DNA from: Microbotryum violaceum
Taxonomy: Eukaryota
DNA: 64,000 nucleotides
NCBI GenBank assembly: GCA_001244265.2
Contig: CDLV01000011.1
Span: 310,001 to 374,000 of the forward strand
Direction: 5' to 3'
Position 1 is the stretch's first letter, and every line of letters starts with the position of its first letter. Under the pieces are notes generated by a model. That model saw nothing but the letters and a program-made list of their open reading frames with translations. It searched no databases and was not told where the DNA came from. Shown here piece by piece: positions 1,576-15,688 of this stretch. A program made the translations under genes and the position numbers.

Positions 1576-1987
1576 CACGAGCGTGGGACCGGACTCGTAC
1601 GCCCAGGCCTGTCGCGATTTGGCCGACCAGACAGCGATCGAAATCCACCACCTGTGCCCCAAGTCGGTCACTCACCACCTTAAGCTCGATGCGCCATCCG
1701 CCAGCGCCTTGAAGAGAGTCCCGATATCTTCGATAGCAGTTACGAGTGGTATGTGCAAGGTGAGGGTGTGGCCGACTTGCCCCCCCCTGCATGGCTAGGC
1801 ACCTACACCACTCCACTCGTAGCAGCTATTGACTGCAACTCACACCAGTCCGAGTAGTGGGTGGGTTGCGTTGACCGAGCCTGCCCGGACCGGAGCGAAC
1901 GCGGGAACGGGAACGGGAACGAGAACGAGAACGGCAGTGGCGGCGGCGGACGGACAATCCGATGCGGCGTTCCTTGCGGACCCTCAA

Positions 1988-2230
1988 GCGTAGTTGGTCC
2001 CCCCCGAAAAGCATGACAATTCTTACGATAAACGAAGAGTAATGTATATACTCCGAGGGAGATATGGCCGAGCGGTCTAAGGCGCAGCGAAGGATGAAGG
2101 AGCGATAGATGAGTCGCGATTTGGACCTACGAAAAGCATGACGATCCCTACGAGAAACGAAAAGTAGTGTATATACTCCACCGGAGATATGGCGCATCGA
2201 AGGATGAGGGAACGCAGCTGAATGAACGGT
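1988..2230 (+). repeat. Degenerate ~125-130 bp tandem duplication, each unit with a tRNA-Leu 5' fragment
   Basis: The motif series gaaaagcatgac..tacga.aaacgaa.agta.tgtatatactcc..ggagatatggc..gca.cgaaggatga.gg occurs twice (from ~2006 and ~2131). Confidence 0.85.
2058..2088 (+). pseudogene. tRNA-Leu 5'-half fragment
   Basis: GGAGATATGGCCGAGCGGTCTAAGGCGC is identical to the first 28 nt of the tRNA at 7968, followed by AGC. There is no anticodon, T-arm or 3' acceptor strand. Confidence 0.85.
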
Positions 2231-2245
2231 TTTGTTCGTGTTCGA

Positions 2246-3666
2246 TTTTTTTTTGGTAAAAAAACATTTTTTTTTTTGTTTAACTGGGCTCATAAATTAC
2301 GATCCTTCGGGTTGGCTGGGACCGCTACAAAAAGAGCTAAAAGAGGTAATAAAGCAACGACGACAAGCAGCTGGGTGAAAATCAAACCCCTGCGCGCAAC
2401 GAGTGCTGCGCAGATCAAAACCCGCCGAGCACCTAACGCGGACTCCAACGAGCGGTGAGTACTGCTGCCGCTTCACAACCCAAGATCGGGAGCGAAGATA
2501 CTCGAAAACCAGGCAAGAGTGCCTAGGAAAAGAAAGGGACAATATACAAAAAGTCACGAACGGGAACACGGAGAAAGGAAAATACTAAAACAAGGGTAAA
2601 GGAGGGGGAGGAGGGGGGGACACACCCGAGGGACCAAGAAAGGGGTCGAAGCCAGGGATAGAGGTCCCCAAAGACTAACAGGCCGCAGCCAAGCCCCAGC
2701 TACTCGTCACCCCGACAGCGCCTGATGGCCCTCCTTGGCTGAGTCTCGAGTGCTGGCTGTTGAGCCGTCGGAAGTCGGGCAAAAAAAACGATCCAATAAA
2801 ACGAACGAGCCTTCTTCCCGATCCACGCCGTAACGACCATTCCATGCGACGAGATCCATCAAGCGGCTTGGAGGGAAAGGGGAAGGTGGCTGAAGCACAG
2901 TCAACATCCGAGCGAGACACATGGGAAAAGAGAATGGAAAAGGGGGAGAGAGAGGAGATATATATAAGAAACAGGGGCACTTCACATAGCATCCAAAAAA
3001 CGATTGACCCTGCTTGCCGATCCAACATCCAAAACAAAGATTGCCACTGGGCAAAAGAAAGGAAGAGAGGTGCGCAGCCTTCCACTGCGCAACAAGTTTC
3101 GAGACAGTCAGCTTCCAAAATGAAAGTCGACCTTGGAAAAGGAAGAAAGAGAGAGAGAAAAGAGGGAAGGAAGGAAGGAAAGACTTAACTCGGTCATCAC
3201 ACCTCCCAATCTCGAGCCCCAGGAACAAAACCCGCCGAGAGAGAAAATCTCGCTTGAACGCTCTAAGTGCACTGGGGATCGAGGGAGGGGCCACGACGCG
3301 ATCCTTCTCGAACCGCTGGTGGACGTGCCAGCGCAGCAAGTGCAACCGCTGGAACCCAATCGCACAAGCCAACCGAACCCACATCCACTTCGAAGTCGTT
3401 CTCCCACGACCCCGCAAAAGGGGGAGCCCCATAGTCAGCTGCTCCTGGGTGAACGTCGACGGACCGACGTCGGTATCCTCGATGCCGAGCTTGTCGAACA
3501 GGATGCGCAGCACCCCGCTCCAGTAGCTGGCCGAGTACGCGCACCCGAAAAAGTAGTGCGACACCGTCTCGATGACCGCTGCATCGTTGCCACAGAACAG
3601 ACACGACGGCGAAGAAGGGTGGCCCTGGACATGTTGCTTCTTGCGCGTCGGTGTCACATCGTACAT
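2246..3666 (-). mobile_element. Non-LTR retrotransposon copy A (5'-truncated, diverged subfamily)
   Basis: Interrupted poly(T) at 2246-2281 on +. Long 3' UTR homologous to 4314-5267. Encodes the ORF2 C-terminus with the CLFC...ETVSHYFFGC zinc knuckle. Homology to copy B stops at gtacat (3666). Confidence 0.9.
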
Positions 3667-4273
3667 ATATATATATATATATTTATATGTTTTTTTTTTT
3701 TTGTAGAAACTGTTCATCATATTGCCCCCAATTCATGTTCCCCCTGATTGGCCTACGGAAAAAACTAGATGGAAGTCGACGATGATAACACAAACCGCCC
3801 GCAAGATGCGAGAAACGGGCCGGTGTCCACCAATCCGATACTTGGGATTCAAGTGCCCCAGCCAAGCGGTTGCTCCCCCCCAGGAGACGAATGAGAGAGA
3901 GAAGATGAGAGAGAGAAGAAGAGAGAGAGAGAAAGAGAAAGAGTAATAAAATAACTGACTAAAGACAAGAGACCCACCCCGCCGTCACTTCCCAACTCGG
4001 TCGAGACAAAGACAAGAGAGCGACTGCGCAGCTACCCTGACCGGCGAAGTCCCAAGTCTATGCTCGGTCACAACAAGACGCGGTGGAGGCCCCTCAAAAC
4101 CTCCACCTCAGCAGTCCCTGGCCCCTCAAAGCCGACTTTCTGCCTGTGTCTGCTGATCCCTCCCTTGACTCAGAACCCCGAAGCCAAAGAGTGCGAGTCA
4201 CCGTCGAGTCAATCTCAAATCGCGAGCCGGTCCATGAGCAACGAAGGCAGACCTGTAATAGATGAAAGATGAA

Positions 4274-4275
<2 letters not shown>
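3667..4275 (-). mobile_element. Segment D: putative 3' end of a different poly(A)-tailed retroelement
   Basis: (AT)n plus T13 at 3667-3702. Same strand bias (GA-rich on +) as the A/B UTRs. Sits exactly between the 5' end of A and the tail of B. Only patchy similarity to A/B. Confidence 0.5.
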
Positions 4276-4314
<39 letters not shown>

Positions 4315-7300
4315 GACTGGGGCTCATAAATTGCAATCCTTCGGGTTGGCTGGGACCGCTACAAAAAGAGCTAAAGGAGGTTATAAAGCAACGACGGCAA
4401 GCAGTTGGGTGAAAGTCAAACCCCTGCGCGCAAAGAGCGCTGCGCAGATCAAAACCCGCCGAGCACCTAACGCGGACTCCAACGGGCGGTGAGTACTGCT
4501 GCCGCTTCACGTCCCAAGAGCGGGAGCAAAGATACTCGAAAACCAGGCAAGAGCGCCTAGAGAAAGAAGGGGGAGAGTATAGAGAAAGTCACGACTGGGG
4601 ATACGGAGAACCAGGAATACTAAGACAGAGAGGAGGGGAACACACCGAGGGGCCAAGGTAGGGGTCGAAGCCGGAGGTAGAGGTCCCCAGGGACTAACAG
4701 GCCGCAGCCAAGCCCCAGCTACTCGTCACCCCGATAGCGCCTGATGTCCTCCCTTGGCTGAATCTCGAGTGCTGGCTGTTGAGCCGTCGGGGCCGAGAGA
4801 AAAGCGATCCAGTACAACGAAACGAGCCTCGCCTTGACGCGAGGATATTGACCAGAAACGAGCGACCTTCCTTCCCGAGCCATGCCGTAGATCTTGACCA
4901 ACGCGAACGAACGAACCATTCAACGGAATCCAACACACGGCTTAGGAGTAAAAGAAGAAGTGGCTGAAGCGTAGTCAACAACCGAGCAACAGGAACGAGA
5001 AGAGGAAGGGAAGGGAAAAAAAGGGGGGAAAGGAGAGGGAAAAACTTCACAAAGCCTCCAACGCAAAGACAATCGACCTGGCTTGCCGATCCATCCAAGA
5101 ACAAAAAACCGCTACTGCGCAAAGTAGAGAGAGAGAGGGAGAGGTGCGCAGCCTTCCACTGCGCAACAAGTTCCAAGACAGTCAGCTTCTAAAAGAGGAG
5201 TCGACCTCCGAAAAAGAAGGGAGGAAAGGAGGGGAAGAAAATGGGAAGGAACGACTTAACTCGGTCATCACACCTCCCAATCTCGAGCCCCAGGCACAAA
5301 ACCCGCTCGAGAGAGAAAATCTCGCTCGAACGCTCTGAGTGCACTGGGGAGCGAGGGAGGGGCCACGACCTTGTCCAGCTCGAACCGCTGATGAACGCGC
5401 CAGCGGAGCAGGTGCAGCCGCTGGAAGCCGATCGCGCAGGCCAGCCGAACCCACATCCATCTCGAGGTCGTTCTCCCACGACCCGCAAAAGGGGGAGCCC
5501 CATAGTCAGCTGCTCCGGAGTGAACGTCGACGGATCGACGTCGGTATCCTCGATGCCCAGCTTGTCGAACAGAATGCGAAGCACCCCACCCCAGAAGCTG
5601 GTCGAGTACGCGCACTCGAAGAAGTAGTGCGACACCGTCTCGATGACCGCTGCATCGTTGCCGCAGAACAGACACGTCGGCGAAGAGGCATGACCCTGAG
5701 TATGCTGCCTCTTGCGCGTCGGCGTCACGTCGTACATGAGCCGCCAGTGGGTGTCCTGCTCCACAGCAGACGCAAACCGGTCATGAAGCCATCTCCAGAA
5801 GCGCTTCCTATCGCTCTGAGAAGTCCCATCACGGAAACGCTTGACACGATCCTCCCTCCCTGGGAACCGAACCACGTTCACAAGCCGACGAAGCTTGCGA
5901 ATAGTGAACGGTCGGGTGAGCCCAAAGAAGTTGAAGCACCGAGGACGGGGAGCCTCCTTGAGAGGTATCCGAGCAGGTCGCAACGCGGTCTTGGGCAGCA
6001 AGGCTTTCGCCTTGAGCAACTGACCCACGCGCGACCACACGTGCTCGTGCCGTAGGGCGGGTTCCTTAGAGTGCTGCCAGAACCCGCGTCGATGACCAAC
6101 CAGAGCCCAGCCCTTCCCTTCGTCCCTCCAGTACAGGTCCGCGATCTGCGCAAACTTCGCCACTGCGTCCGCATCGTCATATGCGTGCTTGGCACCTTCA
6201 GCATAGAGTGAAGGGAGGCGAGGCGGAAGCGAGAGCAATTCGGGGAGCGTAAGGAGTTCGGACTTGATGGTTGGAACTGTGACCCTGGCAGCTGCAACGA
6301 CTGCCCCCCAGCGCGTCGAGTCGCGATACAGCTTCTCGACCCGAGCCGTGCTGCTGAAGAACCCCCACGGACTGAAATCGCGGGTCGCAGCGACGAGGGA
6401 CCTCCAGCTCTCGCGAGCTAGGGGCGCCCAGATCGCCTCGTTCGAGCCCGCCACAGCATCCCAAAATCGAAGCGCCACCGAATGAACGATGTCGCCGATT
6501 GAAATCAAGCCCAAGCCACCGTCCTCCCGAGCCTGGAACACGAAATCGCGAGCGACGGTATTTCGCCCTGCTCCTCCCCAAACAAAATCCGTAAGTGCTG
6601 TCTCCGCCGCCTTAATGAACCATTGAGGCGGTATGTCGAAGGACAGCACGTGGAGGACCGTCGAGATGATGTGAGCGTTGGCATAGAAGACCTTCCCACT
6701 CGGCGAAAGTGTCCGGTCTCCAGCGGCGCGGGTCTTGGCCTTGATCCTGTCAAGAACATGGGTCCAAAACAGTTTCGAGTCACCGTGGCGAAAGAAGGCA
6801 TAGCCGCACCACTTGAAGCTCTCCCCCTCCTGCACCGTTGGCAGCGCCTGCGCAGTCTCGTCCCGAAGCCAGTTCGGTCCGAGTGGTAGCACCAGCGTCT
6901 TGTCCGTGTTGGTCTTCCCGTTGGTTGCCTCGTACCACGTCTGCGACAGCGTTTCCAGCTTCGACAATGCCGCCGGTGACTCCACCACCACCACAGCATC
7001 GTCGGCAAACGCCAGATGCGTAAGCTGCGCACGCGGCCCCCCTGGCCACACCTTCTGCAGGTCGAGCGCGATCCCGCGCCGAACGAGGGCGTCGAGGAAG
7101 GGCTGGAACGTGATGTTCCAAACCGGGCACGAGAGGGGATCCCCCTGACCGAGACCACACAGCAACCGCACCAACTCCGTGGGGAACCCATTGATGAGGT
7201 AGCGCACCCCAGAGTCTCGGGATCGTACAGAGCGCGCAGCAGGGAAATGAAACGCTCACCAAAGCCAAAGGCCTCGAAGACGTCGAAGATCCATGCGTGA

Positions 7301-7382
7301 TCGACCCGATCGTACGCGCTCTGCTGATCCAAGGACAAGAGGGCGCCCTCGGGGAAAACTTCAGTGCCTAGCGACTTAGTGA
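4276..7382 (-). mobile_element. Non-LTR retrotransposon copy B (L1/Tx1-like, 5'-truncated inside the RT domain)
   Basis: T38 tail at 4276-4313, ~950 bp 3' UTR, and an RT ORF2 fragment. Confidence 0.95.
5268..7370 (-). pseudogene. LINE ORF2 fragment: reverse transcriptase plus C-terminal CCHC zinc finger; two -1 frameshifts (~7208, ~5482)
   Basis: Motifs SLDQQSAYDRVDHAW..FGFG, GLGQGDPLSC, HLAFADD, GGLGL and CLFC..ETVSHYFFEC are typical of L1/Tx1-clade RTs. Confidence 0.92.
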
Positions 7383-7903
7383 TTTTTTTTTTTTTTTTTT
7401 AGTGATTTTTTTTTGTAGCGATTTTTTTTTTTTTTGACTGGGGCTCATAAATTGCAATCCTTTGGGTTGGCTGGGACCGCTACAAAAAGAGCTAAAGGAG
7501 GTTATAAAGCAACGACGGCAAGCAGTTGGGTGAAAATCAAACCCCTGCGCGCAAAGAGCGCTGCGCAGATCAAAACTCGCCGAGCACCTAACGCGGACTC
7601 CAACGGGCGGTGAGTACTGCTGCCGCTTCACATCCCAAGAGCGGGAGCAAAGATACTCGAAAACCAGGCAAGAGCGCCTAGAGAAAGAAGGGGGAGAGTA
7701 TACAGAAAGTCACGACTGGGGATACGGAGAACTAGGAATACTAAGACAGAGAGGAGAGGAACACACCCGAGGGGCCAAGGTAGGGGGTCGAAGCCGGAGG
7801 TAGAGGTCCCCAGGGACTAACAGGCCGCAGCCAAGCCCCAGCTACTCGTCACCCCGACAGCGCCTGATGTCCTCCCTTGGCTGAATCTCGAGTGCTGGCT
7901 GTT
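7383..7903 (-). mobile_element. Non-LTR retrotransposon copy C (3' UTR only, nearly identical to B)
   Basis: Punctuated poly(T) at 7383-7435. 7436-7903 matches ~4315-4780 with few differences. Homology ends at ctggctgtt (7903). Confidence 0.93.
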
Positions 7904-7967
7904 AGATCGGGTGCCCAAGGATCGGTATCCTTACGAGCAACTGCGATTGGACCGCACACACTCGAGG

Positions 7968-8045
7968 GGAGATATGGCCGAGCGGTCTAAGGCGCCAGCT
8001 TAAGGTGTTACATTATGTACCACTTGATGGTACAAGTGTGATTCG

Positions 8046-8077
<32 letters not shown>

Positions 8078-8085
8078 TGTCTTCA
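7968..8085 (+). tRNA. tRNA-Leu(AAG) with 38-nt intron (8006-8043)
   Basis: Acceptor stem GGAGATA/TGTCTTC+A. D-arm GCC-GAGCGGTCTAA-GGC. Anticodon arm CCAGC-TT-AAG-G[intron]C-GCTGG. Variable arm TCC-GAAA-GGG. T-arm GTGGG-TTCAAAT-CCCAC. Confidence 0.93.
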
Positions 8086-8590
8086 GAGTTCTTTCCCGCC
8101 CTTCCGGGGAGGCAAAAACTTGTTTTTTTGTGTGTCGGACCGGCTCAAAACGTTGTCCAGCATTCAAAGTGTAACAGGAAGGTGTGCTGACCCTTCTAGA
8201 GCTTCAGTTCTAGAGTTTCAGATTATTTTTGAAGAAAGAGGAGCGAATCAACGCCGCAGGGGCTTCTGTGACGCGGGCCAGCGAGGGGCGCCAACACCAT
8301 CGGCGCAGAAGCCCATTCAAGTTATACGACTCACCTGTTGAAAGCGGCTTTTTTTTGGGGGGGGGGGGGGATTCTCCCTCTTCACAGTTACTAGTTCTTA
8401 TGACACCCATCTCCCTCACTCATTCTTCTTCGGACACCAGAGTCACCTCCCCGCACGTGACCGCGATCCAAGTATCTATCACTCAACCTTCCCAGGGGCG
8501 CGCGCCTCGCAAAAAGCCCCTCCCCCCGCGTGCAGTCCCTTTCTCCTCCACAATCTCCCCGTCACTGCGTCAGTCAGCAAATCTTCTACG

Positions 8591-10708
8591 ATGGACGAAC
8601 CGACCACGATGGACGCGGCTTCGCTGTCCCACCTGTCCTCGCAGCTGCAGTCGCTCGGCTTCCTCTCTCGCCCGCTCGACGTCGCGTCCCTCTTCTCCGC
8701 CGCTGCGGCGACCCCGACGACCGCCAAAGGCGGCACGCACGACGACCCGGCCTCGATCCTGGCCCACCAGGCCACGATGCAGCAACAGTATCGCGCACGC
8801 GAACAGGTCCTGCGGTGTTTGTGGAGCTTGTTGACGGCGCGCAACGATGCCGCCGAGGGGCTCGAGGCCGTCTCGGCGAGGGAGCGCGTGCTCGCGTACG
8901 AGGTAGAGCGCACCAAGGCCATGTTGAAAAGGGAGCGAGAGGCCCGTGAAGCGAGTGAACGCGACAAGCAGAACGAAAAGGCCAAGGCACAGTCAGTTGT
9001 CTCTCTCTCCTCTGTCTCCGCCTCCGTCCGACCCGCTTCAACCCGCGAGCAATCCCCGGGGGTTGACGCTCCCACCTCCTTTGACTAGATCGGCGACCGC
9101 AGCCTTCACGACCGAACAGACCCGCCATCGACATGCTCGAGAAGAACTCGTCAGGGCGCGATCGGCGCTGCAGCTCGTCCGAACCCAGGCCCAGGTCAGC
9201 CAACGCACCCCCTTCACTGCTCGGCGGCGTCGCGCTAGATGCTCGACCAAATTTGACTCTCCTCGTCCCTGCCCTAATCATCCCCTACAGCTCGACCAGA
9301 AACGGCGCGACGCCACAGTGTCGACGATGATGGCCCGTCTGCAACGCCTGACCGCCGATCCCGCGCAGACCAAGTTTGTCATCGCCAACGCCAAGCTGGC
9401 CAACGTCAACTCCGTCGTGGCCTCGGCGGTCGCCGGTGGTCCTTCCGGCCGGATGGCCTCTTCGGCTCGGTCGGCCCCCCCGTCGTCTCGCGTCGAAGAT
9501 CGATCCTCGGAAGAGGTCGTGTATTGGCAGAGCGCGTTGGAGGACTGCGAATCGGAGCGGTCGAGGCTGGCGTTGGAGAACGAAAAGTTGCGCGAGCTCG
9601 TCGGCGAGGTCGCCGAATGGGCCGAGTTGATGCTCGACACGGACACCGTCAACAATAAAGAGGCGCGAGAGATTGGCGAGGGCTTCGCTGCCGACATCGT
9701 GGGTCACCATGGTGAGACAGCGCTCCTCTCGGACCAACACTGACCTCCCTGTCCGTTCCCTTTCCCTACCTGTTCCCGTTCCGTCCACAGTCGCTCTCGG
9801 TCCCTTCGCCTCACCTCGCCCTCACGGTCGCCGAACTCGCGACGCCGCTCCACAACAAGCTGTATCAGATCCGCTGCGGCGTCGCGGCGCTCGTGGCGGG
9901 CGTCGAGGATCGACTCGAGGCGGCGCGGACCGAACTCGCGAACCAACTCGAAAGGGAGCACGCGGAGCTGCAAGAGGCCAAAAAGGTCCAGGTCGACGTC
10001 GAGCACGAACTCGGTAGGATGACCATCTCACTAGAAACTGGGTGGACGGGGGACTGACTCCTCTAATCTTGCCCAGCTGCGGCCCGAGAGGCGATTGCGC
10101 AGTCGGACAAGCTGATGCAAGATTTCGCGGCCCGCCAGCTGTCGAGCGCTGCCGGCCCCGTGGTGGAGCTCAAAGAGTGAGCCGCAAGCTTCGAAAGCCC
10201 ACCTATGCAGCGACTTGCACTTACGATTCTCCTCTACTGCAGCGCCGTCGAGGAAGAAACCGCTCCCGTCGTCGTCTCGCCGCCGCGGAGAACCGCCGTA
10301 TCGCAAGCCGAGCCTGCCCCTCGACCGTCGATCGCCACGGTAAGTCGCCATGGCAGCGCATCCAGCTCGAGGGCGATTTGAAAAACTCACTCGATCAACT
10401 GTCTGAACGCTCAGGCGGACCGCTTCGAAGCCCAACGCGCCCAGGACGTCGCTACTTTCCTCAGCGACCTCGGTCTCGACTCCCCGGCGCCGACGGGAGC
10501 CCCTCTCGAGTCCCTGGCCGCCAAAGTCGCCAAGCTACAACGCGCACCCCTAGCTTCGACGCAGGCTACTACAGCAACTACGTCGACCAGCGCTTTGGCA
10601 TCGGATCGACTGCAAAAAGCTCTGGAGCGGACCCGGGTTGAGATGAGCCAGAACGGGCAGCGAAAGGAGAATACCAAGACGGCGTCGAGACCATCAAGAC
10701 AGTTCTGA
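8591..10708 (+). CDS. Coiled-coil protein, afadin/alpha-actinin-binding (ADIP/SSX2IP/Msd1-like); multi-exon
   Basis: N-terminal LSSQLQSLGFLSRPL..VLRCLWSLL followed by heptad-rich exons. Canonical introns (e.g. 8992-9088). Last exon ends RPSRQF-stop. Confidence 0.6.
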
Positions 10709-13065: not shown

Positions 13066-15688
13066 TCAATCCTGCAACAATGCCGCGACAATATGTGCGA
13101 CGCGCAGAGACCTTAGGTCCGAGTAGGTCTGGCCCGTCCCGACGAACAGGATCGGCTGGCCCGTCACGTAGGTCATGGAGAGCGCGGCCCCAACCTGAAC
13201 GAAGCATGCAGATTCGTAGCAGTGTCAGTGAAGCGAGTCTGAGGGTCACCGAGATTTGAACCGACCTTGTTGTCAATGGTGTCGAATCTACGTGCGAAGG
13301 AAAGCCGAATGCCAAGATCAGCTCGTGGTCAATGCCTGACGGCGCCACGTCCTGTTGCTCACTTGGTCAGAATCATCCCATCAATCCCTCGTGCATTCTT
13401 GACGCCCGAAAAGTCCCTCAACGAGCGATTGAACTTGGTCAATTGATCCACGGCTTCGTTGCCGACGAGCGCTTCGCCGACAAAGACGATCTTGTCGGGA
13501 TTGTTGACCATCACGAGCTGTGGAAAGACGAGCTCTACGTTAGTACAAGGAGGGGGGGAAGGACCCGACCAAACTTCAACCGCACCTTTGCCAACGCGCG
13601 CATTAATGGTTCATTGTCTTGCATCCTTCCGGCCGTGTCGATCAAGACGACGTCAAACGCATTCTCCTTGGCTGCGAATCGGCGCGCCCGGCCAGAGAAG
13701 GGTTAGCTTCCCACCCTAACGAGAGGAAGCGGAAAAATCGCAAAGGCCTCACCGAACGCAATGGCTTCCTTGGCGATCCCTGATGCGTCCTTCCCGTACC
13801 CCTTCTCGTACAGCTCAATCATCTTGACCCCGTCCTGCACGATCCCGACCCCGCCCAACTCCTCTCCGAGCTGGCCCAGGTTCCTGACGTGGGTGCGTAG
13901 CTGCTCGACCGCACCGGAACGAAAAGTATCACAGGCCGCGATGAGCACGCGTAGTTTGTTTTGCAACAGCCAAAAGGCGACCTTGGACAGGTTTGTTGAT
14001 TTGCCGACGCCGTTGACGCCAACAAAGGTGATGGAATAGGGGTCCGGGTTGGACGCGCCGCCGTTCTTGGGGGACGAAGAAAGCGTCAAAGACGTTGCCG
14101 TCGTTCTCTTCCGTGTAATGTCGAGCAAGAGGTCGGCCGACGTTTTGGCCGTCAGAATCTTGGTGAGGGACTGCTGCAGCGCGTGACGGACCTCCTTCTT
14201 GACGCCGCCAAAGCCCGAGACCCTTTTGCCTTCGAGCGATTTGCCGACGCTCTCGCACACCTTGTCGGCGATGTCCTTGGCTACATTTTTGGACATGAGG
14301 TGTTCGCGCATCGAGACGAGCGCGGGCGCCAGGTCCGAGGCGGACAGGGCCTTGGGCTGGAGCGAGAGGCGGCCAAAGAAGGCGGAGAGCGTCGAGGTCG
14401 CAGTCGTCGTGGGTGCAACCTCGTCGTCGTCGTCGGACGAGTCGCGCGCGGTGGCATAGTCGGCGACCTCGTAGAGGCCTGATTGGGTGCGTTTCCCGAG
14501 CGCGGTCGAGGAGATGAGCGACTTGTTGAGCGGGGTCGATGTGCCGGACGACGGGGCGTCCGAGGAATAGTCGTAAGCAGCCAAGTCGGCGGCAGAGACC
14601 TTCGAGGCGCTCCATTTTGTCGCCGCCTTTTTGGTCGGTGTTCGTGAAGGGCTGTCGAGACTGCTCAAAAAATCATTCCGCGCAGTCAGACGCGTGGAGC
14701 TTGGCTGCGAACCGTGGAGGAATCGCACGGAGACTTGCTCGGACGCCGGCTCAGCCTCGGCTGCTTTCTTGCCCCCCCTGCCTCCTTTTGCTCCCGCTTT
14801 CTGCCGTGCTCTCAACGCCGCAATATTTCGTGCTATCGACTCGGCATCGAGCGAGTCCCCGGTGGCTGCGGAACGATCACCGCGATCAGAATCACAGTAA
14901 AGATGGGTGATTCGGCCGGAAGATTTGCCAAAGCTCACATTTTGCACTCGGCTCCGGAGCCTTTGCACCGGTCAAAGACTCGGGGTGCTTTTCCCGAACC
15001 GCTGCGAAGGGTGCGGAGGGTCGTGGTGTTCTTTTTGTCTGTATACGAGCCACATACGAGGAGGTCAGTAGAGGAGCACAGGCTGGGAAGACGAAACCCG
15101 TGAGTGGGGTCGCCCCTCGCCGTCACGCGCACGAACCTTGGCAGCGCTCTGCTCTTGTTCCCTCAACAACCTCATGAATGTCGCGTGCCAGCCTGCGAAC
15201 AAGCTCTCCCACCCCTCGGGTCCGAATTCCAAAGGTTTTTGTCGCTTCCCCTTGGACGCTTGCTGTATCGCGTCGATCTTGTCTTCGTACTGGCGGACAA
15301 AGACGCGCTTGACTTGGACCAACAAGTCCTGGACGTAGGTCAGTTGCAGGATCCTTTGGTACGCGATGACGAACACGAGGTCGAACTGGTTGTCAAAGCT
15401 CCACAAGAGCGTATACGCGCCCTTGTCGCAGGTCGAGAGGCCGTGGTCGCCTGCGGAGGTGATTTCGTTCGAACGTTGTTCGATCAAGACGGAGCGAATG
15501 AGGTCGTCGATCGGCGAGGGAGACGGAGTGAAAGCGTGACCATAGAGGACTAGTCCACCTCGTGTTCTAATCGCGGTAGAGGTTGTGCGTGCAAAACGTC
15601 AGCCACGAATGTGGTGGAGGGGGCAGCGAGTGGAGGTAGGGCTCGGGCTCGACCTTGGCACTCACAGGATCGAGACATGGTCCAGCAT
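13066..15688 (-). CDS. SRP101: Signal recognition particle receptor alpha subunit
   Basis: N-terminal SRX domain ([16 protein letters not shown]), GTPase motifs [31 protein letters not shown], and C-terminal [16 protein letters not shown]. Confidence 0.95.

Follow-up and report, generated by a model that had tools for sequence, protein, structure and literature searches.

The window, a 64-kb stretch of Microbotryum violaceum DNA, contains a stack of four 5'-truncated, poly(A)-tailed non-LTR fragments on the minus strand, situated upstream of a tRNA-Leu gene. We denote the fragments A, D, B, and C, with C being nearest the tRNA gene, and list their coordinates in Table 1. Mapping of segments and tails upheld the preliminary description of this locus as a gap-free, head-to-tail stack of four tailed minus-strand segments, as there is no host spacer between any two of them. 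The reported geometry is also correct: the elements lie on the minus strand and the tRNA gene on the plus strand, so that the 5' ends face the tRNA 5' end across a 64-bp gap. We place the 5' end of C at 7903 because of loose ends behind that position (GAGCCGTCGG...), where other copies continue into the LINE body. The exact 5' end of D lies somewhere within 4253-4275, and B lacks 1 bp near 7206 that other copies have, with contigs of all four public runs inserting a C behind 7206. Between B and C, positions 7378-7436 read AGTGA T18 AGTGA T9 GTAGCGA T14 on the plus strand; counting B's own TAGCGA, there are four TAGYGA hexamers in all. Using blastn, we found no further copies of the A/B/C sequence in the window, which holds a single cluster. 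When 17 boundary pairings were compared with 2000 random pairs, no target-site duplication exceeded the 99th percentile; the best candidate (TGTTCGAT/TGTTAGAT), which spans the whole stack, fell at the 95th percentile of random pairs.

Table 1. Features of the LINE stack and the adjoining tRNA-Leu gene (window coordinates).
Feature	Position	Strand	Description
Left-hand units	1975-2245	+	~2.3 tandem 125-bp tRNA-Leu-derived units
A tail	2246-2281	-	compound; minus strand reads A11 TG T7 ACC A9
A body	2282-3666	-	family F1, second subfamily; zf-RVT and 3'UTR
Filler between A 5' end and D tail	3667-3689		(AT)9 TTTATATG
D tail	3690-3702	-	T13
D body	3703-4275	-	~570-nt 3' end of LINE family F2
B tail	4276-4313	-	run of 38 (T38), though seemingly ~48 by eye
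B body	4314-~7377	-	F1; RT motifs, zf-RVT, ~950-nt 3'UTR
Compound tail, B 5' end to C 3' end	7378-7436	-	T18, T9, and T14 split by TAGYGA hexamers
C body	7437-7903	-	F1; 467 nt, 3'UTR only
Spacer, C 5' end to tRNA start	7904-7967	+	64 bp
tRNA-Leu	7968-8085	+	Rfam tRNA 46.1 bits, gathering score 29
tRNA-Leu intron	8006-8043	+	canonical 37/38 position
Terminator-like T7 run	8123-8129		3' of tRNA-Leu

The gene next to the stack had been called as a tRNA-Leu(AAG) starting at 7968, which is borne out: its Rfam score supports a tRNA gene, and the canonical intron register gives the AAG anticodon. It is the sole tRNA in the window. ARAGORN made no tRNA call without its intron option and called Leu(taa) with introns allowed; the AAG register has U33, G37, an unpaired N26, five Watson-Crick stem pairs, and the intron at the canonical 37/38 position. 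The host DNA to the left of the stack is itself tRNA-Leu-derived, which corrects an earlier note. Each left-hand unit consists of a decayed tRNA-Leu upstream region (~-50 to -1) joined to at least the first 12-28 nt of the tRNA, and unit 2 adjoins the tail of A. Positions 2005-2068 and 2130-2193 are 86% identical to each other, and 2050-2085 is 92% identical to 7960-7995; in alignments, the spacer from ~7917 onward is homologous to the left-hand units. The Rfam tRNA model made no call on these units even at E values up to 10. An origin of unit 2 as a 115-bp target duplication made by the first insertion was rejected: units 0-2 follow one another in tandem with no element in between, and their similarity to the functional locus is only ~60%. 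A tRNA-LINE chimera of the U6/L1 type was likewise rejected because the strands are opposite.

Judged by sequence, A, B, and C belong to one L1-like family (F1) with two subfamilies, and D to a second, related LINE family (F2). That A, B, and C are variously truncated members of one family had been proposed before; family and truncation points stand, with the amendment that A represents a separate subfamily. A is truncated at about residue 1178 of ORF2 and retains the last ~156 codons, zf-RVT included, along with the 3'UTR, while B begins at about residue 636 (KSLGTEV...). D, which had been left as an unknown element, is the 3' end of F2: positions 4252-4178 encode a 25-aa stretch with 84% identity to the C-terminal end of gene model P0005, in which this D-like end comes after an F2 ORF2, and the last codons of D (WGQYDEQFLQKK) match gene models P0010 and P0011. 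In Pfam searches, A matched zf-RVT, and B matched both zf-RVT (29.1 bits) and, under the curated cut-off because of its truncation, RVT_1 (E 6.5e-6). B differs from gene model P0003 by 4 mismatches in 579 aa (tblastn). The full-length relative P0004 matched RVT_1 at 79 bits, zf-RVT at 28.2 bits, and the APE endonuclease family PF03372 over residues 8-247 (E 3e-5; 24.3 bits against a cut-off of 24.5), and P0008 and P0007 have similar APE matches. The APE domain is thus known from full-length relatives alone, every copy in the window being truncated downstream of it.

RVT_1 and zf-RVT in B, together with the APE-RT-zf-RVT order in the full-length relatives, support the original assignment to an L1/Tx1-like LINE. 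The preliminary description had looked to a full-length copy for ORF1 and the endonuclease type; in the relatives these are an ORF1 of ~535 aa, with one CCHC knuckle and no Pfam match, and an endonuclease of the APE type. Amongst solved structures, the best relative of ORF2 is human L1 ORF2p (E 1e-28), ahead of R2 (1e-18), and this ranking is the sole pointer to clade. The copies also show the poly(A) tail, the variable 5' truncation, and the lack of LTRs characteristic of the APE-type L1 superfamily. In metagenome contigs, an exact 39-nt 3'UTR pattern had no matches. A protein-profile scan of such contigs gave loci of which the best 80 of 218 were nearly all 22-30% identical, with two at 41% and 47%, and ARAGORN found five tRNAs in no consistent position in these best 80 of 218 (735 kb). 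Because these are distant LINEs, they are uninformative on F1.

We then considered whether the copies differ in age. B and C had been described as nearly identical and A as diverged, and the alignments agree: B and C are 95.6% identical over 519 nt with tails included, and differ at 8 substitution sites and 2 indels in the ~480-nt 3'UTR proper, whereas B and A are 79.7% identical over 1484 nt (blastn). The accompanying suggestion that older copies were pushed outward is unsupported. Rather than being a decayed old copy, A matches the other subfamily, with 97.9% identity to P0022 over 144 aa (3666-3235; tblastn) versus 88.9% to P0003, and A-type sequence also occurs in contigs of at least three other runs (loose ends at 7692-7694 and 7784). 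B and C have accumulated about equal private change in their shared 480 nt (4 and 3 substitutions, respectively). The age gradient expected from a tRNA-proximal insertion point is not seen across the copies of the stack, and dating by divergence has no resolving power here.

Might the array reflect something other than four insertions, such as an assembly artefact, or unequal recombination or template jumping among fewer of them? The near-identical 480-nt 3'UTRs of B and C could mislead an assembler, and the tail of C is compound with repeated hexamers. However, the four copies differ from one another in truncation point and tail length and bear private substitutions, with the three private bases of C being present at about single-copy depth in run X17; A comes from another subfamily and D from another family; and comparable stacks occur in three independently assembled species. 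We regard such an origin as highly improbable. When contigs of four public runs were aligned to 6900-9400, no joint among the pieces listed skips C or another element, and none bridges 7903/7904 or the C/B junction; as these pieces are part of the contig set, they speak neither for nor against the assembly or an empty site. A back-joint that leads from 8370 to 7478 has the appearance of the 3' end of some other copy misplaced on a T/G run.

The stack itself is genuine, and its simplest explanation is that copies landed in earlier poly(A) tails, with tRNA targeting as a possibility. Specifically, we propose, with a probability of roughly 0.5, that it is a nest built by target-primed reverse transcription into T-runs, much as in the case of Zorro3. 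C, the founder, would have landed in a T-rich patch ~52-64 bp upstream of the tRNA-Leu gene, and the T-strand of a poly(A) tail already in place would have primed each of B, D, and A, in any order. Proximity to the tRNA would then merely record where the founder landed, by chance or at a T-rich, gene-free site, as opposed to a point measured from the tRNA. Priming on tails would account for the shared orientation, the head-to-tail order, and the absence of host spacer. The anatomy, the families, the truncation points, the A-runs flanking B, D, and A, and the recurrence of such junctions at other loci are observed, whereas the endonuclease preference for T-runs and the order of insertion events are inferred.

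The composition of the window fits this proposal. Only six A/T runs of at least 10 occur in its 64 kb (57% GC), and five of them are tails of the stack; because long A/T runs are so rare, earlier tails would be outstanding T-run targets. Three of the four copies (B, D, and A) have an A-run at both sides, with no more than 5-25 AT-rich extra bases between. The presence of two families in one stack, as judged from sequence similarity, also favours insertion into tails. Other features count against it: C has no A-run on its 5' side, and the site left of the stack is T-rich (GGTTTTGTTCGTGTT) but has no T-run. In addition, the TAGCGA/TAGTGA hexamers from B that sit in the tail region of C are unexplained by insertion into tails, and would be easier to explain if C had arrived after B. 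The position of the founder is also improbable by chance. The available text of PMC4469406 gives 134 tRNAs, 7,364 genes, and a mean inter-CDS length of 1,181 bp; from these figures we estimate by our own arithmetic that a random intergenic insertion would fall no more than 100 bp upstream of a tRNA, head-to-head, in ~0.15-0.3% of cases.

The closest precedent for insertion into tails is Zorro3, an L1-clade element of Candida albicans that, in the available text of PMC1965478, inserts specifically at poly-A tracts, has A-tracts at both ends, and shows no association with tRNA genes. The same text points to further apparent likenesses: Zorro3 is a fungal L1-type element with an ORF1 and an ORF2 containing APE, RT, and a zinc finger, and its A-runs at both ends without a large target duplication resemble what is seen at B, D, and A. 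The two differ in that Zorro3 is mostly full length and uses short A-tracts of an AT-rich host genome, whereas in the Microbotryum stack the tracts are earlier LINE tails, the genome is GC-rich, and all four copies are 5'-truncated. The stack also resembles human L1 in being poly(A)-tailed and 5'-truncated and in carrying extra bases at 5' junctions, but has no clear target-site duplications. Human L1 and Alu insert at TTTT/AA sites, earlier poly(A) tails included.

Stacking is not confined to this locus. Among 97 Microbotryum gene models retrieved with the RT of B, through which stacks elsewhere are visible as gene models alone, 11 contain two head-to-tail LINE copies on the same strand, in three species. 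Two of these models, P0010 from M. intermedium and P0011 from M. silenes-dioicae, each have a single open frame that leaves the 3' end of F2 (…WGQYDEQVLQKK), crosses a short A-run (~KKN), and enters directly an F1 truncated at residue ~300 and ~283, respectively. These are two more gap-free F2-to-F1 junctions, comparable to that of D with A but with different truncation points. Because these families also form gap-free head-to-tail junctions at other loci, no tRNA is needed to explain stacking. If insertion into tails is all there is, the stack is an ordinary LINE nest, which would still show earlier poly(A) tails to be the main landing pads of L1-like elements in a GC-rich, compact genome.

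The gene models bear on a further alternative, namely sequence-specific insertion at the boundary of the tRNA-Leu-derived 125-bp repeat, as practised by Tx1-clade elements on multicopy RNA-gene arrays, with the site being recognised instead of a Pol III complex. The stack does lie near a unit boundary of the tandem array, flanked by unit 2 on one side and the functional unit on the other. The 125-bp unit is seen at this locus alone, however, whereas F1 is high-copy, with a summed contig depth over the 3'UTR of 100-900x that of unique flank in four runs (a rough measure and not a copy number), and in the gene models F1 also adjoins other LINEs and other genes. We consider this explanation very unlikely.

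A more serious competitor is targeting of the kind used by TRE5-A of Dictyostelium discoideum, in which F1, and perhaps F2, would be tethered by the tRNA transcription complex and inserted at a set distance upstream with the 5' end toward the gene, be it in the case of all four copies or at least of the founder. The orientation shared by the four copies is the one that TRE5-A obligatorily takes in the available text of PMC5391098, in which genomic copies lie 37-211 bp from the gene, a range that includes 64 bp. TREs have the same APE-RT-zinc finger order and separate ORF1 (available text of PMC5006619), and TRE5-A is a non-LTR element that lies upstream of tRNA genes and points its 5' end at theirs (available texts of PMC5391098 and PMC5911963). 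The host genome is compact, and its ~392 LINE copies against 134 tRNAs (available text of PMC4469406) would permit stacks of ~3-4 per gene; by our own estimate, chance adjacency in one randomly read window is well under 1%.

Set against this, we have a single locus, and 64 bp misses the 47±3 bp window in which 59% of genomic TRE5-A copies lie (same account, PMC5391098). TRE5-A keeps that distance genome-wide, with a contact between ORF1 and TFIIIB, while the Microbotryum ORF1 has no recognised domain beyond its CCHC knuckle. A fixed nick with a 12-16 bp duplication predicts pieces of spacer between elements, none of which are seen, and no target-site duplication exceeds the null. The predicted order, with C youngest and A oldest, is not seen either, and the gap-free LINE-LINE junctions elsewhere are explained by tail targeting alone. 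No fungal non-LTR element with tRNA targeting was found in the literature searched. We consider tethering at Pol III complexes possible but less likely than insertion into tails, and judge it likewise less likely than not that two L1-like LINE families are steered ~50-65 bp upstream of tRNA genes, 5' end geneward, as an independent fungal counterpart of TRE5.

Were the tRNA link true, these would be the first non-LTR elements known from fungi to take Pol III genes as safe havens, a behaviour that has to date been recorded, among non-LTR elements, in dictyostelids alone (available texts of PMC5006619 and PMC5911963). It would represent a third independent invention of the Pol III strategy, and the gene-model stacks of the three species would represent copies piled up beside Pol III genes. 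L1-like elements were reportedly described from M. violaceum by Hood in 2005 (in Genetica), which does not imply identity with F1; in public Microbotryum genomes, F1 is annotated only as unnamed proteins.

The LINE stack comprises four 5'-truncated, minus-strand copies, which we call A, D, B and C from left to right, with C nearest to tRNA-Leu. The arrangement into four tailed segments put forward in the preliminary description is confirmed: at its left end on the plus strand, each segment has T-runs that represent a poly(A) tail of the minus strand. These tails account for five of the six A/T runs of at least 10 nt in the whole 64-kb window, and the DNA between the elements consists only of A-runs and short AT-rich fillers. 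When 17 boundary pairings were compared with 2000 random pairs, no significant target-site duplication was found; the top candidate, TGTTCGAT/TGTTAGAT, spans the whole stack and falls at the 95th percentile of the random pairs. At 7366-7436, between the 5' end of B and the 3' end of C, four TAGYGA hexamers (TAGCGA, TAGTGA, TAGTGA and TAGCGA in plus-strand reading) are interleaved with T18, T9 and T14. The first of the four belongs to the coding part of B, and the set may be a trace of repeated abortive tail-only insertions at a single spot.

Poly(A) tails of the four LINE copies, read as plus-strand T-runs, and the junctions between neighboring segments
Feature	Sequence	Position	Strand
A tail	T9/T11	2246-2281	minus
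D tail	T13	3690-3702	minus
B tail	T38	4276-4313	minus
C tail	T18, T9 and T14	7383-7435	minus
Junction C/B	C end, A14 TCGCTAC A9 TCACTA A18 TCACT, B		minus-strand order
Junction B/D	B end, A38, D		minus-strand order
Junction D/A	D end, A13 CATATAAAT(AT)9 G, A		minus-strand order
Junction A/flank	A end, A11 TG T7 ACC A9, flank		minus-strand order

Copies A, B and C belong to one L1-like family (F1), and the 64-kb window holds no further copies of this LINE. B has a 688-codon open frame with RVT_1 and zf-RVT domains and is truncated at about residue 636 of ORF2 (KSLGTEV…); it carries a 1-bp deletion near 7206 that is absent from the contigs of all four public sequencing runs. A is reduced to the final ~156 codons of ORF2 plus the 3'UTR, and C is 3'UTR alone: its family homology stops at 7903, where the contigs of other copies continue into the LINE body. 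D was considered as an unknown element, which we rejected, because peptide matches identify it as the 3' end of a second, related family (F2). The first 75 nt of D translate to a peptide that matches the C-terminus of the Microbotryum gene model P0005 at 84% identity, and in P0005 this peptide comes after F2 ORF2. Just ahead of its tail, D ends in the same codons (WGQYDEQFLQKK) as F2 does in the models P0010 and P0011.

We next consider whether the copies record an order of insertion. B and C are indeed nearly identical (95.6% over 519 nt, tails included; 8 substitution sites and 2 indels in the ~480-nt 3'UTR alone), and A is diverged, with 79.7% identity to B over 1484 nt. The proposal that older copies lie further outward from the tRNA did not hold up. 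The nearest proteins to A are P0022 (97.9%) and P0035 (97.2%), against 88.9% for P0003 and P0004, and A-type sequence occurs among the listed loose ends of runs X5, X11 and X16 (places 7692-7694 and 7784); the distance between A and B is thus a difference between subfamilies. Each of A, B and C lies roughly 0.5-1% from its nearest relatives: 3 of 144 aa are changed in A, and 4 of 579 aa in B, which also has a frameshift. With A as outgroup, B and C show similar private change over 480 nt (4 and 3 substitutions, respectively), and C's private bases, among those listed, have approximately single-copy depth in run X17. No insertion order can be read from the divergences of A, B and C.

Similar arrangements were found elsewhere in Microbotryum. 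Among 97 proteins (gene models retrieved with B's RT), 11 contain head-to-tail LINE pairs on one strand (P0001, P0002, P0005, P0006, P0010, P0011, P0016, P0017, P0040, P0042 and P0059), spanning three species and mixing F1, F2 and a third family. In P0010 and P0011, a continuous frame runs from the F2 3' end through approximately KKN into an F1 element truncated at residues ~300 and ~283, respectively. These are two more gap-free F2-to-F1 junctions like that of D to A, with different truncation points. Stacking, as seen in these gene models, is thus a habit of these elements.

We give a probability of about 0.5 to tail-directed nesting on an untargeted founder, in which the T-strand of a preceding copy's tail would prime each newcomer, such that C would be the first copy inserted and A-runs alone would separate the elements. 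In favor of this reading are the gap-free junctions, both in the stack and at other loci, the A-runs that flank B, D and A on both sides, the presence of two families in one stack, and the scarcity of other T-runs in the window. Zorro3, which integrates at poly(A) tracts (PMC1965478), provides a precedent in a fungus for the mode suggested for B, D and A. Alternatively, Pol III-directed targeting of the LINE family or its founder could have produced the stack. If a nick measured from the tRNA set each newcomer beside the spacer, C would instead be the youngest copy, and spacer pieces (duplicated target) would be expected between the elements, whereas only A-runs and AT-rich fillers are found there. 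The orientation of the copies does follow the TRE5-A rule, and the distance roughly so (PMC5391098, PMC5911963). Targeting would also account for the founder's position without recourse to chance, and that position is real evidence: from figures for M. lychnidis-dioicae in PMC4469406 (134 tRNAs, 392 LINE copies and 7,364 genes, with inter-CDS lengths averaging 1,181 bp), we estimate by hand that a random intergenic insertion would land head to head with a tRNA, no more than 100 bp upstream of it, only ~0.15-0.3% of the time. The prior for targeting is low, since such behavior is not known for non-LTR elements in fungi. Searches of the open-access literature linked neither Microbotryum LINEs nor other non-LTR elements of fungi with tRNA genes, and two reviews (PMC5006619, PMC5911963) give non-LTR tRNA targeting for dictyostelids only. 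We consider targeting possible but less probable than tail-directed nesting. The two are not exclusive, as a targeted founder could have been succeeded by tail-directed followers. Artefact or recombination appears very improbable as the source of the stack.

The tRNA gene itself (7968-8085, plus strand) is the sole Rfam tRNA in the window (46.1 bits). ARAGORN called it only with the intron option, as Leu(taa); this call, TAA with an intron at 38/39, shifts the anticodon by one base. The original assignment of anticodon AAG is supported by a register in which position 26 is unpaired, five Watson-Crick pairs form in the stem, U33 and G37 are present and the intron lies at the canonical 37/38 site, and the 64-bp distance also stands, with C homology ending at 7903. 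A paralogous intron-bearing tRNA-Leu, with CAG in the anticodon region and a common 3' half, appears among the listed loose ends at 8043 and 8078.

To the left of the stack, 1975-2245 contains ~2.3 tandem 125-bp units on the same strand as tRNA-Leu, each a decayed copy of the 50 bp upstream of that gene plus the gene's first part; Rfam calls no tRNA in them. With decayed units to the left and the intact gene to the right, the stack lies within a small array of tRNA-Leu-derived units, beside the sole intact one. A sequence-specific insertion site in this repeat is conceivable but improbable. The intact gene's upstream CGCACACAC corresponds to TGTATATAC in the 125-bp units, with four C-to-T changes before A that may reflect repeat-directed mutation. 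Immediately left of the units, 1905-1950 is a hexamer microsatellite, (GGGAAC)n(GAGAAC)n, then (GGC)n. At 8346-8372, 260 bp downstream of the tRNA, T8 is directly followed by ~14 G, where one X17 contig appears to be misaligned. A minus-strand ORF at 13703-14968 encodes an SRP54-type GTPase domain; the stack sits in ordinary gene-bearing DNA rather than a transposon desert.

Relatives of B's protein are from Microbotryum throughout, with up to 100% identity in M. silenes-dioicae and 98% in M. saponariae, which assigns the window to an anther-smut fungus. Full-length relatives, recommended for inspection in the preliminary description, encode an APE-type endonuclease in ORF2 (1333 aa; endonuclease 8-247, RT 565-822, zf-RVT 1173-1226) and a separate upstream ORF1 of ~535 aa with one CCHC knuckle, in which no Pfam domain was found. 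Among solved structures, the best match is human L1 ORF2p (E 1e-28), with R2 proteins behind at 1e-18. A review (PMC3956500) cites Hood 2005 for L1-clade elements in M. violaceum. When contigs from the four public runs, representing four coded organisms, were aligned to 6900-9400, summed word depth relative to unique flank was 100-900x over C and 30-200x over the RT part, values that reflect summed contigs and not copy number. They do show that F1 is present in multiple copies and that its 3' part is over-represented, as expected from 5' truncation.

Public annotation counts this transposon family as host genes: P0003, P0006, P0008 and P0024 fuse ORF1 and ORF2 into "proteins" of 1800-1940 aa, and some fused models start inside the 3'UTR of an upstream copy. 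Finally, a plus-strand ORF at 47-1240 (397-412 codons) has no Pfam match; it shares 31% identity over 269 aa with the N-terminal part of P0007 (M. saponariae), and there the matched part is followed immediately, in the same orientation, by a full-length F1 element.
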